Source of the DNA: an uncultured Planctomycetaceae bacterium
GTDB taxonomy: Bacteria; Planctomycetota; Planctomycetia; Planctomycetales; Planctomycetaceae
Assembly: GCA_963815195.1 (NCBI GenBank)
Contig: CAWFGE010000015.1
Location: forward strand, 96,001 to 160,000
Length of the DNA stretch: 64,000 bases
Reading direction: 5' to 3'
In this document: positions 38,798 to 46,634 of the stretch, one piece after another
Layout of the letters: every line of letters starts with the position of its first letter
Numbering within the stretch: position 1 is the stretch's first letter
Program-made: the position numbers and the translations under genes
The notes under the pieces: model-generated
Told to the model about the DNA's origin: nothing
Seen by the model: only the letters and a program-made list of their open reading frames with translations
Database searches by the model: none

Positions 38798-40557
38798 ATG
38801 CGTCGTCCCGCCCAACTCGCAGAGCAGGTTATCGGGAAAGCCGTGGCGGAAGCCACACGGGGCTGCGGCGTTTGGCCGCTGCAACCGCATGTGGTGGCGT
38901 TGGAGCCGCCGTTCGATCCCTACGATCGATACGAGGTCACGGCGTGGGACTGCTTCGTGAACGGCTGGGACGCCGGATGGGAGAGCAGCCAGATCAGGCG
39001 GTTGCTGCCGACGGAGCCGATCGACGTGTGGAGCGAAGTGACGTTGCCCGCCGACATCGACCAGCTAACTTCAAACACCCGTCGGCTGTCGGTGGCCCGC
39101 TTCCCCGAGGATGAGGCGACGGTGGCTAAAGCCGAGCAGTTGCTGCGGGCCCTGCCCCATCTCACTCAGCCTGTTTCGTTTGAAATCGTGGGGCTGGGGC
39201 CGATGCCGGAATATGACAGCGCAATGATGCAGCAGTTGGCGCGGGACCAAATGCAAGGACGAGCCGTGAATTTACAAACCGCCATCTGCGGTTGGAAACC
39301 GCCCCGGATCGTCACCCAATTCGCGGGCGCCCTCCCGGATATCCGCCGGCTGGAGAGGTTGCTGCTGGCTCATTATCCCAACTCCGCCGTGGTGTTGGAG
39401 GAAATCATGTCGGATGACCCGATGGACAAAGTGGACGTGGGACGGGAGGGCTACGGCGCAAGTTTGGCCTTGCACGGCGGGTATTGTCTGCCCCTGCGCA
39501 CGGTGACGCGGATGGACCCCGATCCTTTGACTGTTCCCATCTCGGCGATGGATCATTTGGGCAAAGAACAGTGGGCGGCGGTGCGGGTTCGGTTTCAGCG
39601 GGCCCTCGCGCCGTGGGAGTCGCTGTTGCGAACGGCCTTGACCGATCCCCACAAGCCAAAGCAGATGCTAATCTCGGATATCAGCGAACGGCACTTGGCC
39701 AGCAAGTTCGCCTCGCCGCTGTACGCCGTGGGCATCACTCTCACGGCCTCGACCAAGAGCGTCTTCCGGCAACTGGTGGGCTGGGCAACGCAGTTCTCCA
39801 CGCCGGACCATGAGTTGTTCTGCAACGACGGCGAATGGGTGAACGGGCAGTTGTCCGACGAAGAGCGGCAAAGCTTGTCCTGGACATTGACGTTCCGGCA
39901 GACCCATCGGCCGGGGATGCTGCTCAACTGCCAGGAACTCTGCGCGCTGGTGCATCTGCCCAATGCCACCGTGGTCAGCCAGCGATTGGAAACCGTCAAA
40001 ACCCGCACCCGGCCCGCTCCCCCGCCCCAGACGCCGCCGGGCGTGATTTTGGGCGAGAACGTCCATCGCGGCAAACGCCGGCTGGCCATCGTCCCGGAAG
40101 AACACCGCCGCCTGCATTGCTACGTGGCGGGAGCAACCGGAACGGGGAAATCGACGCTGCTGCTGAATGGCATTCTGCAGGACATCGAAGCGGGGCACGG
40201 CGTGGGCCTGCTCGATCCGCACGGGGATTTAATCAAGGATGTGCTCTGCCGCATTCCGGATCATCGGGTCGATGATGTCGTTCTGTTTGATCCCTCCGAC
40301 AGGGAGTTTCCGTTCGCTCTCAATATCTTTGAATCGCGGGGCGAACAGGAACGAGATCGGGTGATCGCCGAGTTCTTGATGGCCCTTCAGAAATATTTCC
40401 CGAGCAGTTGGGGGCCGCGATTGCAGCGGACGCTAACCTTTACCCTTCTGGCGGTGATGGAAGCACTCCCCCACCCCACCTTGGACGATGTGGAGCGAAT
40501 GTTGACCAATCCCGCCTTCCGGCGGCAAATCAGCGCAAAACTCACCCGCCAGCGGAT
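38798..40557 (+). pseudogene. Type IV coupling protein / HerA-like ATPase (TraD/TrwB-like), truncated by IS21
   Basis: RRLHCYVAGATGTGKST, LLDPHGDL, WGPRL; interrupted at the IS end at 40558. Confidence 0.8.
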
Positions 40558-40630
40558 TGTTCGGCGTCAATTAGCTCTGCTCTTTAGCGTCAATTAGATT
40601 GACCGTGCAAGAGGGAGAAATCGACGGGCA

Positions 40631-41083
40631 TCAGCCTTTGGAGCCAGGCTTTGACCCGTCCGAATCGGCCGAGTTTTTCTTGTTTTTCTTGGCGGTTTCC
40701 AAGCGGTAGCTGGGGATGTTCAACTCGATGATGATCGAGTGATGGATCAAACGGTCGATGGCCGCCGCGGTCGTCATGGGATCCTTGAAGATTTGCTCCC
40801 ATTGAGAGAAAGGCAGATTGCTGCTGATCAGAAGGCTGCCCCGTTCGTAGCGTTCGGCCAGGAGCGTGAACAGCACTTCCATCTCCTCGCGGCTCTGTTG
40901 AACATAGCCCAAGTCGTCGATGATCAGCGCTTCGTAGCGGCTGAGCTTTTTGATCCACTTCTCCAACCGCAGGTCGCGTTTGGCCCGCAGGAGTTCTTGG
41001 ACCAGCATCTGGCAGGTTGTGAATAACACCGTGCGGCCTTGACGCGCGAGTTGGTCGCCGAGTGCGGATAACAGATTCGTCTT
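40631..41083 (-). pseudogene. istB: IstB 3' half (from Walker A Lys)
   Basis: KTNLLSALG...LIIDDLGY...LISSNLPFSQW...AAIDRLIHH...SYR. Confidence 0.88.
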
Positions 41084-41086
41084 GAC

Positions 41087-43162
41087 TCAGCCATTGTTGT
41101 GCCCCCTTGGGATAGTGATTTGCTCGGTTTCGTGATTTTTGAGTTTTAGCATGGCGTCTTTAACCTCCTCAGTTTTGGGAAACAGATAGCACCGATAAAT
41201 TGGATCGACAGAAACCACGATCTGTCTTTGCTCAATTTTATGATACATCCAGGATATGTTGTGCCCGATTTCCTGAGCCATTTCCGCGGCGGTCCAGGCA
41301 TGGGGCAGGTTCTTTGCACGCGGGCTTTTGATCCGGTAGCGATGTCTTAACTTGTTCACGATTTGCGAGGTGAATTGTTCGCCACGACAGGGATGATGGC
41401 CTTCGCGATTGAGATCCGCCGCGATCATTTCACTCGACCGGCCTTCGCTGGTTTCTTGCCGGATGCGTTCCACGATGTGCTCTTCCAAGTCCGTGTGTTT
41501 CATTGAAAAACGCCGTAGGAGAGCCGACGTTTCGGTCACCGAACCGCCGGCCCAGACCATGCGAATTTGCACCAGCCCATCCGATTGCCGGTGAAGATTG
41601 ACTCCCGTAATCATCGTCCGCAACAACGACTTCTTCGCCTCCCAAGACAACTCGGGCCAGAGTTCGGGAAGCTGCCGCCCGACATCCGCGAAGGCGTCTC
41701 GCAAGGACTTTGGTACGCGGATCGGTTGGGGAATTTCTCGGCGGGCATCCGCCAGGTTTTCTTCGGCTTGCTTTTGCGCCAACAAAGCCGATTCCCATTT
41801 CTCTTCCAGACTGGCCGCAATCAAACGGTTCTTGGGATCGACACAGTCGTATTGTTGCTCGGCCCGATGGGCGGCGTATTGCAAGCGCCCGACGTCTTGC
41901 TCCAAATGCCGAACCACGTCCGCATGCGTGCGAGCCCTTTCGGCGGAGAGTTTCTCCAACACATCGATCTCGGCAGGCCGCAGCACTTCAAAGAAAGCTT
42001 CCGTCACCGCCTCGTCGATCTTGTTGCCGCCCAAGTACTGGCAGGATCGTTGGGCGTAATGCCGATAGCCAGAATTGCATGAGTATTGAAAGCGGTTCTC
42101 CTTGTAATTCACTCCCATCGTTCGACCGCATTTTCCGCAGCGCAATAAGCCCGTTAACAACGCGCAGCCGTTGCGGATGGCTTGCTTGGCGGCGAGTCGT
42201 TGTTGGATGCGGAGGTTGTTTTGAGCGATTCGGCGTTGGTTGTCTTCGTACTGCTCCCAACTGATATAGGCCGGGTAGATGCCGGGAATTAAGACCGACC
42301 ATTCCGCTTGGGGCCGGCGCGTGCGACCCGTGGCAGGACGACCGGGAATTCGTAGCGTGGGATTGACTTGCCGACGCCCATGAGCAAACGCGCCTGCATA
42401 AGCCGGGTTATGCAGGATCGAGCCCAACGAAGCGGCCGTGGCTTCTCTCCAAAACACTTCGCCCGCATAAAGGCCCGAAACTTGGCGCCGGGGAATCTTC
42501 AAATTTTTCTTGGCCAGGAACGTCAAGACTTTTTGAATCGTGCCCAACTCCACGAACTTGTCGAACACCAAATGCAATCGCTTTTGAATGCTCAGATCGG
42601 GATCGAGCATTACCGCCTTGTCCAGATTGCGGACCAAGCCCGTCGGCAAGTTTTGCACCAACTCGCCCCGCGCGGCCTTCGACAATCGACCCGCGTCCAA
42701 TCGCAATCGGAGGCTATGGAGTCTTGCCGAAGACATCGTGCCCTTCAAGCCTAAGAGGAGCCTGTCGTTGAAATCCCGTGGATGATACAACCCATCCACA
42801 TCACCGATGAGTGTGTCAAAGATCGCACACAATTCCAACAGTCGATGCCAATCCACATCGTTGCGGGAAAGCCGTGAAACTTCATAGCCCAGAATGATGC
42901 CGACCTTACCCAAGCCGACGTCGGCGACCATCTGTTGAAAGGCCCCGCGTCCCGCCGTTTGCGTGGCCGATTGCCCTTGATCATCCTCCAGGATGCTGAC
43001 TTGTTCCGGCTTCCACCCCAACTCCAACAACCGGGTTTTCAAGGCTCGCTGGTTGTGGGCACTCTCTTGGTTTTTCTCGACCTGCTTCGTCGTGCTCTGA
43101 CGAAGATATACGATCCCGCGGCGATTCAAATGGCTGGTGCTGACTTTCATCGATCCGTTCAT
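41087..43162 (-). CDS. Large serine recombinase (resolvase + recombinase + Zn ribbon)
   Basis: VYLRQST catalytic Ser, EVSRLSR, DRLLLGLKG, ILHNPAYAG, LLTGLLRCGKCG. Confidence 0.92.
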   Translation of the reverse strand: MNGSMKVSTSHLNRRGIVYLRQSTTKQVEKNQESAHNQRALKTRLLELGWKPEQVSILEDDQGQSATQTAGRGAFQQMVADVGLGKVGIILGYEVSRLSRNDVDWHRLLELCAIFDTLIGDVDGLYHPRDFNDRLLLGLKGTMSSARLHSLRLRLDAGRLSKAARGELVQNLPTGLVRNLDKAVMLDPDLSIQKRLHLVFDKFVELGTIQKVLTFLAKKNLKIPRRQVSGLYAGEVFWREATAASLGSILHNPAYAGAFAHGRRQVNPTLRIPGRPATGRTRRPQAEWSVLIPGIYPAYISWEQYEDNQRRIAQNNLRIQQRLAAKQAIRNGCALLTGLLRCGKCGRTMGVNYKENRFQYSCNSGYRHYAQRSCQYLGGNKIDEAVTEAFFEVLRPAEIDVLEKLSAERARTHADVVRHLEQDVGRLQYAAHRAEQQYDCVDPKNRLIAASLEEKWESALLAQKQAEENLADARREIPQPIRVPKSLRDAFADVGRQLPELWPELSWEAKKSLLRTMITGVNLHRQSDGLVQIRMVWAGGSVTETSALLRRFSMKHTDLEEHIVERIRQETSEGRSSEMIAADLNREGHHPCRGEQFTSQIVNKLRHRYRIKSPRAKNLPHAWTAAEMAQEIGHNISWMYHKIEQRQIVVSVDPIYRCYLFPKTEEVKDAMLKLKNHETEQITIPRGHNNG

Positions 43163-43265
43163 GCTCCAGTTCCTCCGTTAGAATGACGACGATTTGCTGG
43201 ATGATCCGCTGCTGCTCTGGAAGAGTCAGACGGTTCCACACCTGGTCCGTGGCAATGGGTGACAT
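42981..43265 (-). CDS. Small accessory ORF of the recombinase element
   Basis: GGAGG RBS; MSPIATDQVWNRLTLPEQQRIIQQIVVIL helical segment; tail overlaps the recombinase. Confidence 0.5.
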   Translation of the reverse strand: MSPIATDQVWNRLTLPEQQRIIQQIVVILTEELEHERIDESQHQPFESPRDRISSSEHDEAGREKPRECPQPASLENPVVGVGVEAGTSQHPGG

Positions 43266-43560
43266 CGGCTTCCCTCCGAGAAAGAATATCCCGAAAGGTA
43301 GTCACCAAATCCTGGAGCGCGTCCGGGGTCAGACAGGAAGTTTTTTGGGGAGGAGCGGTGGAAAGGTTCGTGCTGCTGACGTCGATGTAGGTCATCTCGT
43401 CAGGAAAAATCTCGACTTGATAATACTGACGATAACCTGGCAGGCGGGCTAAGCCGAACAAATCAAATGTTCGGCCATAAAGCGGATGGGCCGGATCGAT
43501 GACGGTGATCTCACCGCGCGATAACTGAGTGACCAGAGGTGTCTTGTGATGGTCGGACCT
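43159..43560 (-). CDS. Accessory ORF (resembles Y4bD/DUF5372-type) lacking its own start codon in the integrated state
   Basis: ITVIDPAHPLYGRTF motif; frame open from the junction; stop overlaps the recombinase ATG. Confidence 0.6.
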   Translation of the reverse strand, partial: RSDHHKTPLVTQLSRGEITVIDPAHPLYGRTFDLFGLARLPGYRQYYQVEIFPDEMTYIDVSSTNLSTAPPQKTSCLTPDALQDLVTTFRDILSRREADVTHCHGPGVEPSDSSRAAADHPANRRHSNGGTGA

Positions 43561-43919
43561 TTCCCGTCCCCGGTTGGCCGAGAAAACACACATTGAAATG
43601 CTGGGCAATCCACTCCCCGCGGGCCAACTCCAAAATCGTTTGTTTGTGGAGGCCGGGCACCGCTTGGAAGTCGTAATCCTCCAGTCCCTTCTCCACCGGA
43701 AAGTTCGCATTGCGGAATCCGGCTGTTCAAGGCATTGGTCTGCCGGGCCGCGACCTCCAGTTCGGTCAACCGGAGCAGGTACTGCTCGAAGGTCTGGTTC
43801 GAGGCACTCGCTTCGCGGGCCAACTTCTCGTACTCGGCCAGGATTGTCGGCAGCCGGAGTTGCTTGAGGTTGGCCTTGAGGAGCATCTGGTTGGCATCGT
43901 GTTTCGGGTTCGGGGACAT
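43559..43919 (-). pseudogene. istB: IstB 5' half (to Walker A), frameshift near 43715
   Basis: LKANLKQLRLPT..YLLRLTELE; FPVEKGLEDYDF; NVCFLGQPGTGK. Confidence 0.85.
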
Positions 43920-45365
43920 AATCGGAATCTCCTTGGAAGGAGGACAGGAACTGGTCAAAATGGCTCAAGCTCGGACAGGGAACTTGAACCGACAACACGC
44001 CGGGGTGTTCGCACTCGATCGGAGTGGAAATGCCCTCGGACGATGTTTCCGACAGGCGGAGGGCGGAGGCTTCCACGCGGCGAATGATGCGATCGGCATC
44101 GGCTCCTTCGGGGCCGCGAAGTTGCTCGATCGCCGCCTGCACGCGCGAGAGCGGATGCTCGGCCAGCAACTGCAGCACCCGCACGAATTGCCGCACGCCC
44201 GCGTGGGGACCGTGCCGCCTTTCCAAACGCTCGCGGAGTTCGCCGAACACGGCGGGCAGCTTCCAATCGCGATACACGTTCGCATGATCCAAAGCCGCCG
44301 GGCGACGCGTTAATGTGGTCAAATAGTGCAAAGGATCCAGCACATCATCGCCCGCGTGATAGCTCCGTTCATGGACGGCGATGACGGTTTCGTTCAGCAC
44401 AATCTCGACACGATCCACATAGCCTTTGACCGTCACCGTTTGAAACGCGGCGTGGCGAGGCACGCTGTAGTTCACATTGTCGAACCGCGCGAACTGATAC
44501 TTGTTGACCTTCGCCGATTGCCGGATGCAGGGATCAAACCGCGGCACGGGAAGCGGAGCGGATCGCTGTTTTTCCTCCGCGAAGCGTTCCCCGATCGTTT
44601 GCGTCTGGCCGCTGCTGCAGCGAGTCGTGTTCCTTCAAGCAACACTCGCGAAGATAAGCATTGAACTCTTCCATGTCCTTCACGCGAGGCACCGGCGTGG
44701 ACCATTTCCGCTCCAACGTCTTCACGCGGTTTTCCACCACCGGCTTTTCATTGCCCCGCGCGGGCATGCAGAACAGCGGATCGAACACGTAATGACTGGC
44801 GAGCGCCTGGTAACGCGGATTGATCTTCCGCGAACGCCCGGTCAATAACTCGGTGGCCACGGTCGTCGGATTGTCCCACCAGACTTCTTCCGGCACGCAG
44901 CCGAAAAAATCAAACGCCTGCGTCATGCCCTCCAAGATCGCTTCGGTTCGCTGCGTCGGCAGCGCCACCGCGAACGGAGCGTTGGAGTACGACCAGACCA
45001 GGATCAGCACGTTGACCTTCCGGCGGCCGTCGGGGAAGTCCACCGAAATCTCGCCAAAGTCGGCTTCGATTCGCTGGCCGGGCCGATGATCCAAGGGGAT
45101 GAACGTCTCGGCATGGTTTTTCCGATGCCGATTCACGAACCGCCGCACGGCATCATAGCCGCCCGTGTATCCGTCTTCGTCCCGGATCCGCTCGAAGATC
45201 CGCATCCGCGTATGCCGCTGCTTGGGCGGCGCGGATTCATCCTCTTTGAGAATCTCCAGGATGCGATCGTGAAACCGTCCCAATTGGGGAGCCGCTTGCT
45301 GCCGCCGTAAGGCGTCGGCTCGCCCGCGCCTCGCAAGACCTCACGAATCTTTTTTCGCGAGTGAT
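43900..45365 (-). pseudogene. istA: IstA transposase, 5'-truncated and frameshifted
   Basis: HSRKKIR, PGQRIEADFG, VWWDN, GNEKPVVE, RFDNVNYSVP, HERSY. Confidence 0.85.
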
Positions 45366-45479
45366 GAGTTTCGCTGCCGCCAACTTGCGAAGCTCGCCAT
45401 AAACCAGCGGCAGCAGTTGCTCCGCCAACGAGGGATCGCCGGATTGGATTTGCGAGAGGATTCGGGTGACGTCCGACAA
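45366..45479 (-). pseudogene. ECF sigma factor N-terminal fragment fused to istA remnant
   Basis: SDVTRILSQIQSGDPSLAEQLLPLVYGELRKLAAAKL, typical planctomycete ECF start. Confidence 0.75.
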
Positions 45480-45779
45480 GAGAATGGCCTTGAAAGAGGT
45501 GCAAACCAGCACCAGTATAGCATCTCTCCAAAAGGAACACCCGCATCAATTCCAAGCCTCGCGATGCAGGAATGCATCAAAAACAATGGAAGAATTCAAC
45601 GGGACGCCACCAAGTTCACTAGCGCGAGGATCGGCATTGCCCTCCCCGCCCACGGTTGAATGTCCCTACGGGTGTTTCACTCAGATCGCACCAAAAGTGG
45701 AAAACGAATAACCCGCGGGTCCAGAGGGCCTGCAATTCTGGTTCGCCAGTTTGAACGATTCGGGGAAGTGGCCCCCAAG

Positions 45780-45963: not shown

Positions 45964-46202
45964 TCAAGAAATCGTCGCCCGATACTGAACCTGCTCCAAC
46001 CGGCACGCCACCCGAAGGGAACCGGTCAAAACGTAAGCCCGCGGCGACCACCCAAAGCTGAAAACGCGGAAAAGATTGAATTGCGGCCCCACATCTTCGG
46101 AACACCGCAGTTCGTTGGCGGTGACGTAGAACGGGGAGTACTTCCCCAGGCCCGTCGTTTTCACTTCGATCAGCAGTTCCGATTCATCGATTTCGTTGAA
46201 GC
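45964..46202 (-). pseudogene. DUF3883-like nuclease C-terminal fragment
   Basis: LLIEVKTT..PFYVTANE..LFRVF; 5' part replaced by the CRISPR array. Confidence 0.7.
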
Positions 46203-46237
46203 CGCGATCTGACGTACCCGGAATACGCCGCGATCCC

Positions 46238-46634
46238 GTTTCCGCGGTTGAATGACCGCGGCCCCATTGAAGCAAAACGGCAAATCGGATAGATAAGTTC
46301 AACCTCATCGTTTCCGCGGTTGAATGACCGCGGCCCCATTGAAGCTCGCGCTGAAACCGTTGGTAAATTCCCGTTGGTCCAGTTTCCGCGGTTGAATGAC
46401 CGCGGCCCCATTGAAGCGCCCGCAGCTCCGCCAACATCCGCAGCCCGCGCGTGCGTTTCCGCGGTTGAATGACCGCGGCCCCATTGAAGCGAGTTCCACG
46501 AAGTGGACCGTGGTGGCGCGGATTAACGTTTCCGCGGTTGAATGACCGCGGCCCCATTGAAGCTAACGGTGCTCTAAGTTGTCCTCCCTTAGTCCTATGT
46601 TTCCGCGGTTGAATGACCGCGGCCCCATTGAAGC
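46238..46634 (+). CRISPR. Orphan CRISPR array, 6 identical 36-bp repeats, 5 spacers of 35-37 bp (type I-G/I-U-like repeat)
   Basis: GTTTCCGCGGTTGAATGACCGCGGCCCCATTGAAGC at 46238, 46310, 46382, 46455, 46528, 46599; partial repeat ttgaagc at 46196-46202. Confidence 0.97.

Follow-up and report, generated by a model that had tools for sequence, protein, structure and literature searches.

A minimal serine recombinase element at the Walker A lysine codon of istB in IS21 transposons of an uncultured planctomycete

The DNA analyzed here, referred to as the window, is a 64,000-nt stretch of contig CAWFGE010000015.1 from an uncultured Planctomycetaceae bacterium, and the subject of this report is a 2476-bp element that encodes a serine recombinase and splits the istB gene of an IS21-type insertion sequence (IS). 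The genome is designated G000 (assembly completeness 94.6%), and its contigs and the copies they carry are labeled C7, C8, C9, C12, and so on. G001 to G003 are related genomes, L numbers denote loci of relatives of the window recombinase, and X1 to X4 are four read runs from which short-read contigs were used; these contigs are too short to span the 2.5-kb element. The features that define the insertion are as follows.

40631-41081, minus strand: 3' half of istB, IS21 type B, beginning at base 3 of the Walker A lysine codon (matches IstB_IS21 105-236 and IS21_help_AAA)
41082-41083, minus strand: right AA crossover core (attR-like), the only bases shared by seven right flanks and the same in relatives
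41084-43559, minus strand: the element, 2476 bp between two AA cores, multicopy in the genome
41087-43162, minus strand: large serine recombinase, 691 residues (Resolvase, Recombinase, and Zn_ribbon_recom)
41092-41108, minus strand: orfA start region within the last recombinase codons, with a ribosome-binding-like purine run at 41102-41108 and an ATG at 41092-41094
42981-43265, minus strand: orfB, a small open reading frame (ORF) that overlaps the recombinase start in another frame
43159-43559, minus strand: body of orfA (DUF5372-like; 137 residues once joined to its start)
43560-43561, minus strand: left AA crossover core (attL-like), bases 1 and 2 of the Walker A lysine codon
43562-43919, minus strand: 5' half of istB, IS21 type A, up to GQPGTG (IstB_IS21 2-53 and 61-106), with an extra base at 43716
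43920-45367, minus strand: istA, IS21 type A, lacking its 5' end and the left terminal repeat (transpos_IS21, rve, and Mu-transpos_C_2), with an extra base at 44624

On the minus strand the genes run istA, 5' half of istB, the 691-residue ORF, and 3' half of istB. An istA DDE transposase followed by an istB AAA+ ATPase, together with a transpos_IS21 match above its cut-off, classifies the host as IS21 by its gene content. The istB reading frame breaks off at GQPGTGK at the left junction (AAG at 43559-43561) and restarts as K-T-N-L-L at the right junction (AAG at 41081-41083), with 2478 bp from one AAG to the other. The split falls at the P-loop, because the Pfam IstB_IS21 profile is matched from 61 to 106 on the left piece and from 105 to 236 on the right piece.

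The element is present in G000 as eight full-length or nearly full-length copies and one truncated copy, 99.4-99.9% identical. All nine left junctions and all seven readable right junctions lie at the Walker A lysine codon, and the eighth right junction runs off contig C23. Three different istB genes are occupied, with type A (GQPGTGK) at five left junctions, type B (GAPGSGK) at one, and type C (GPPGTGK) at three, and the C-terminal halves of these genes are only about 43% alike. This placement at one codon is far beyond chance. Every left junction is AAG, and the right flanks are AAG in three of seven and AAA in four of seven. The right flanks therefore share only AA, which sets the core as AA and makes the G at 43559 the first base of the element. 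The preliminary description had placed the cut at GQPGTG-K|T with an AAG codon at both junctions; the cut and both AAG codons are confirmed, and the shared core shrinks to AA.

Six uninterrupted P-loop istB alleles were found in G000 (one B, one C, two D, and two E), so the search for empty sites proposed in the preliminary description succeeds for two of the three occupied types (B and C). The assembly contains no empty type-A allele, and the element occupies all five IS21-A left halves that extend to the P-loop (5/5 type-A copies struck). Read contigs from X1 join the element to IS21-C at both ends, those from X2 join it to IS21-A on the right, and empty B alleles with GAPGSGK before T-N-L-L appear in X1 and X3. 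The Walker A lysine is essential in IstB. IstB itself is essential for IS21 integration in vitro, as stated in passages of PMC10122671 that do not name this lysine. The IS that receives an insertion is thus expected to be inactivated in cis.

The 691-residue protein has the domain content of a large serine recombinase: an N-terminal resolvase domain (PF00239, residues 17-167) with the Y-x-R-x-S motif, and matches above cut-off to PF07508 (Recombinase) and PF13408 (zinc ribbon). The catalytic-motif residues Y19, R21, and S23 and the zinc cysteines C342, C345, C362, and C374 are invariant across 36 homologues. A gap of 3 bp separates the recombinase stop codon from the right core. A read-through of this stop into the in-frame istB half was considered and rejected; only the frame fits, and the geometry of the attachment (att) sites explains the frame. 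The gene is frameshifted in five of eight copies as assembled. When the element ends are joined in silico they form an imperfect dyad, with 6-10 of the first 12 bases matching their own reverse complement in all six elements that have both ends, and the element thus has the 2-bp crossover core and dyad-symmetric joined ends of a large serine recombinase element. A profile search detected no DUF4368 in the protein at E ≤ 0.01; this result and the 16 of 16 own junctions at one codon place the element outside the TndX/TnpX-like multi-targeting clade. An integrative and mobilizable element (IME) is defined by a relaxase and/or an oriT. No relaxase was matched in the element, whose 2476 bp hold the recombinase, orfA, and orfB, and oriT was not searched for. 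On C6, a type-A istB half is preceded by an AT-shifted sequence (1454-1554) 80% identical to the right end of the element, apparently either a decayed copy or a stretch of assembly rich in errors.

The start of orfA and its body lie at opposite ends of the element. The orfA stop overlaps the recombinase ATG, and a right-end start codon (ATG in five elements, CTG in one) comes into frame with orfA solely after circularization in all six in-silico circles. In the integrated state the same codon reads out of frame into istB. A 462-residue frame that would connect istA with orfA was rejected because it exists only with the extra base at 43716. The orfA product is conserved, with D-P-x-H-P-L-x-G invariant in seven of seven aligned members, and its resemblance to DUF5372 is suggested by weak evidence: Pfam DUF5372 (PF17342) gave only E = 0.11, in one of the seven members, and among atlas look-alikes at 0.93 the domain is annotated on 12-33% of members, with a low recognition score. 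DUF5372 does not occur in the literature searched. The first ~40 codons of orfB resemble, by eye, small ORFs in the corresponding position of L003, L036, L038, and L047, and no Pfam or NCBIfam entry matches orfB. Both small ORFs are candidate directionality factors. At L047 (2888-3400) and L048 (3038-3520) an extra helix-turn-helix ORF lies between the recombinase and the right end. Read contigs of the four runs contain no circle joint, which speaks neither for nor against excision because such contigs lose rare variants.

Of 8000 proteins scored in a search with the recombinase, 6941 reached E ≤ 1e-50, and the best 119 were 54-63% identical. Loci of relatives were drawn from genomes (7), metagenomes (80), viral contigs (3), and related genomes, and a tree of 37 rows was built by a quick method. 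Seven non-own loci above 52% identity (53-63%) group with the window protein with a support of 100, and come from Planctomycetota, Chloroflexota, and metagenomes. In six of these seven (L001-L004, L036, and L037) the right junction is at the istB Walker A lysine, and all three readable left junctions are in istB. In the sister group (39-50% identity), L038 and L047 are in istB at both ends. Together with the three IS21 types occupied in G000, these loci bear out the earlier proposal of a minimal element parasitizing a multicopy IS21 target, including its check on the flanks of close homologues. Right flanks of 200 bp or more were available for 52 more distant loci (L019 was dropped as a duplicate of L016); of these flanks, 21 match a transposase or reverse-transcriptase family, 3 match something else, 28 match nothing, and none matches IstB; plasmid relatives (~37% identity) often overlap IS66 tnpB annotations. 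The wider recombinase family thus appears to favor mobile-element genes, and Walker A targeting marks one branch.

The element occurs in one of 61 related genomes searched, its own included, and the best other match is 44%. The five genomes of L001-L004 and L007 hold one copy each by a C-terminal query, and the multicopy state is therefore seen only in G000. The same C-terminal query over the 401 genomes of the phylum of G061 found only G061 itself. A degenerate right-end pattern gave 9 non-own matches in 401 genomes of the phylum and 8 in the reversed control, the level of chance; these 9 and one viral match have no recombinase upstream and were dropped.

Other recombinase elements are found in the same hosts. 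A second element of like design, with a recombinase ~34% identical, lies in istB of IS21-C just past Walker B with a CC core (C21:185-2788, C14, C19, C16, and C18; L030, L031, and L035), and some IS21-C copies therefore carry two different parasites. A relative of this second element in G001 (C20:200-2610; L150 and L015; recombinase 55% identical) is inserted in reverse in the P-loop proline codon of IS21-A, ~10 bp from the site of the window element. Both known targets of this relative share a 7-base word 17 bp from the junction, and two G001 contigs also break at the IS21-A P-loop. Large serine recombinases of further types are encoded at C8:119084, C8:411206, C9:18980, C14:123839, C6:10383, and C15:274716, several of them near IS21.

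The two sides of the window insertion belong to different IS21 types. Two further features bound the right side.

40558-40598, minus strand: right terminal repeat of IS21 type B, with the same sequence at C15, C9, and C7 and a CA end on the minus strand
38798-40557, plus strand: VirD4/TraD-like ATPase gene with weak TraD and HerA matches, cut off by the IS21 right end

The empty type-B allele on C9 reads GAPGSGK before T-N-L-L, and the window type-B half is 96% identical to it. Type A continues as T-H-I-S-I-G in C8a and C7a, both with matching terminal repeats, and a near-identical stretch occurs in G001. The window copy is thus a chimera, type A on the left and type B on the right, because TNLL pairs with the B motif and type A with THISIG. 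Its right end is type B and its left half is type A without an end, so that no matching terminal repeats of one IS21 surround it. Excision at this locus would leave a hybrid istB and not the original. The earlier statement that removal restores the host gene (GTGKTNLL) consequently fails, since the flanks come from two different IS21s and the left one also lacks its 5' end. Among seven copies with both flanks, four are matched and three are mismatched: the window copy (A/B), C16 (A/C), and C12 (C/A). In C12 the tail of IS21-C comes after the type-A right end, the arrangement expected from a deletion between nested copies. Single-nucleotide patterns among element copies are mosaic, and the chimeras cannot be dated from them. 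DNA to the right of 45368 is not syntenic in G001-G003, so the deleted segment is unsized. The ATPase orthologue in G001 runs ~250 residues further, a stretch for which G000 has no match. Pairing of IS ends by their target duplications failed, since a clear duplication was seen at the empty IS21-C on C23 alone.

A 5' fragment of an extracytoplasmic function (ECF) sigma factor gene (45368-45512) is fused directly to the truncated istA, and X1 and X2 read contigs show a normal IS left end instead. Beyond it lie a NOV_C (DUF3883-like) domain fragment (45964-46230) and the CRISPR array that it adjoins (46238-46634), which has six 36-bp repeats and no cas-sized ORF directly beside it within the range listed. 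On C7, a further CRISPR array of five repeats directly adjoins another IS21-A copy at its left end. None of the nine spacers matches elsewhere in the genome.

The age of the insertions was judged from host and element divergence. Compared over 1.5 kb, nine of ten pairs of type-A host halves differ by 1.3-3.7%, and one pair is identical. The elements within these copies differ by 0.12-0.29%, and in the nine pairs the host halves differ 5 to 13 times more. Such similar elements in diverged hosts indicate that insertion postdates host divergence, and the comparison suggests about seven independent insertions, at least three. Site choice was examined with a weight matrix built from relatives only (5 left and 8 right arms, L007 left out) and applied to the 496 G-x4-GK[ST] sites in long open frames of the genome.

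The element probably lives as a parasite of IS21 transposons, addressed to the Walker A lysine codon of istB. Several observations weigh against this reading. The matrix ranks the occupied host sites only 13th, 23rd, 42nd, and 62nd of the 496, and places two empty type-D istB alleles and non-IS ATPases among its highest-scoring sites; local sequence thus narrows site choice and does not explain why istB alone is hit. The apparent youth of the element copies could also result from gene conversion. Among the relatives, the right junction of L007 is in a tyrosine-integrase gene beside an IS91-type zinc domain, and four of six readable sister-group loci (L039, L041, L048, and L053; L042 is unreadable) are not in istB. 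Finally, the assembler could have produced the chimeras by mis-joining copies of the 2.5-kb repeat. This is the less likely reading of the mismatched flanks, and it would leave the targeting itself real. Several contigs (C23, C21, C14, and C19) do end at these repeats, and scattered single-base indels occur in the assembly. Read contigs of the four runs, none of which covers the whole locus, do not decide between the two readings. The extra base at 43716 is absent from C8a and C7a and from X1 and X4 read contigs, that at 44624 is lacking in two further type-A copies and in the read contigs, and both are probably assembly errors. A mis-join should nevertheless leave a reciprocal partner, yet the 3' half of the ATPase gene was not found in the 94.6% complete assembly, and the indels and the error-rich stretch on C6 look like the product of long-read assembly, which normally spans 2.5 kb. 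Real recombination between element copies is the likelier source of the chimeric flanks.

Other explanations concern how the element came to occupy istB. In one, it entered each IS21 type once and the loaded transposon then multiplied with IstB supplied in trans. The host left halves of C7a/C8b and of C18/C12 are identical (0/1500 differences), intact istB genes of other types are present, and the missing empty type-A allele also fits. Co-transposition predicts, however, that host and element differ alike, and nine of ten IS21-A pairs differ more in the host unless conversion has homogenized the elements; three IS types still require at least three insertions. Hitch-hiking of this kind is accordingly judged unlikely. 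A comparably low probability attaches to targeting guided by protein, in which orfA made from the circle or the C-terminal extension of the recombinase recognizes IS21 or IstB-bound DNA. It would account for the fact that all own junctions are in istB though 12 to 61 of the 496 P-loop-like sites outscore the occupied ones, and orfA is built only in the integrating form. Selection against host-gene hits explains the same pattern, two istB types (D and E; four alleles) are untouched, and relatives with the same orfA type use unrelated targets; purging of host-gene hits is the preferred reading of the confinement to istB and active homing its rival. The preliminary description had also raised a reversible off-switch, in which the cell or the IS restores istB by controlled excision. 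Sporulation and heterocyst genes interrupted by excisable elements provide a precedent, the 2-bp core would make excision seamless in matched copies, and the full occupation of type A could be read in this way. Beyond the clean core nothing favors it: three of seven complete copies have mismatched flanks, the recombinase gene is frameshifted in most copies as assembled, and an element confined to one of 61 genomes, with relatives that drift to other mobile-element genes, has the occurrence pattern of a selfish element and not of a fixed switch. We regard a domesticated switch as very improbable.

Parasitism of IS21 by the element can be drawn as a cycle, in which excision and integration are predicted from the observed anatomy, AA core, target codon (at own readable junctions and in most close relatives), empty alleles, imperfect dyad, and circle-only orfA start. 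The recombinase would excise the element as a circle by the usual serine-integrase mechanism. In the circle orfA would be expressed and may act as a circle-stage cofactor of the recombinase. The circle would then insert at the 2-bp AA core of an istB Walker A lysine codon, with the glycine-rich P-loop codons around the core recognized. Confinement to istB would come mainly from purging of hits in host P-loop genes, since a knocked-out transposon costs the cell nothing. Near-identical copies likely serve as portable homology, and recombination between a copy in IS21-A and one in IS21-B would delete the intervening DNA and leave an A-left/B-right chimera.

If this outline is correct, it adds a layer of parasitism below insertion sequences, in which the problem of a safe harbor is solved by aiming at the least mutable codon of another element. 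Copies held in register at one codon would let recombination fuse different istB halves in frame and rearrange the genome. As a gene completed only in the circle, orfA is a candidate directionality or targeting cofactor of a new type. The rules of specificity are open to direct test, given that a single recombinase has three natural targets, empty alleles, and numerous relatives. A bolder proposal, which we consider speculative, is that the element represents a class of hyperparasites that use a protein motif as a DNA address, home by means of a circle gene, extinguish IS21 families, and shuffle IstB halves and IS ends into new variants; new transposon variants would then arise on excision from shuffled IstB halves. 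No description of such elements was found in the literature searched by title and start of abstract, with subscription journals and bioRxiv supplements outside the search and absence from print not proven, and the same literature held no description of IS21 domain shuffling by this route.

SPbeta, skin, and the fdxN element are gene-interrupting elements of large serine recombinases. The window element resembles them in that seamless excision would restore a frame, and differs in its transposon-helper target, its multicopy state, and the lack of evident developmental control; its recombinase matches XisF weakly, far below cut-off. Tn4451 builds a promoter at its junction, whereas the att junction of the window element builds a gene start. 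Tn4451/Tn4453 (TnpX) and the multi-targeting large serine recombinases, as covered in the relevant parts of PMC5704250 and PMC10083194, share with it a 2-bp core and a circular intermediate; they are of low specificity and mostly carry DUF4368, whereas the window protein has no DUF4368 match and keeps to one codon of one gene family. Serine-recombinase IMEs disrupt conserved genes (traG/VirD4, Maff2-like, and SNF2-like) of Tn5252-type integrative and conjugative elements, according to the sections of a review devoted to them (PMC5704250). These IMEs and Tn4451 are the closest systems described. The likeness to the IMEs lies in a serine recombinase, a very short direct repeat, and insertion at a specific site that disrupts a conserved gene carried by another mobile element. 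Unlike these IMEs, the window element is only 2.5 kb long without relaxase or cargo, targets an insertion-sequence helper gene, is present in nine copies in one genome (most IMEs are single-copy in the same review; PMC5704250), and has its first gene split across att. A survey of large serine recombinases (PMC10083194) reports that diverse recombinases converge on a single conserved coding site, as is seen here. Its main text does not contain IS21, istB, or 'insertion sequence', and eight of its supplements do not contain IstB, IS21, or DUF5372; its 50%-identity rule would split the three istB targets into separate gene clusters, yet they share one motif. To these systems G000 adds an IS21 family that is saturated, a recombinase with three different hosts, and the probable shuffling of IS21 halves in register, and the element is ordinary in its enzyme class and unusual in its lifestyle.

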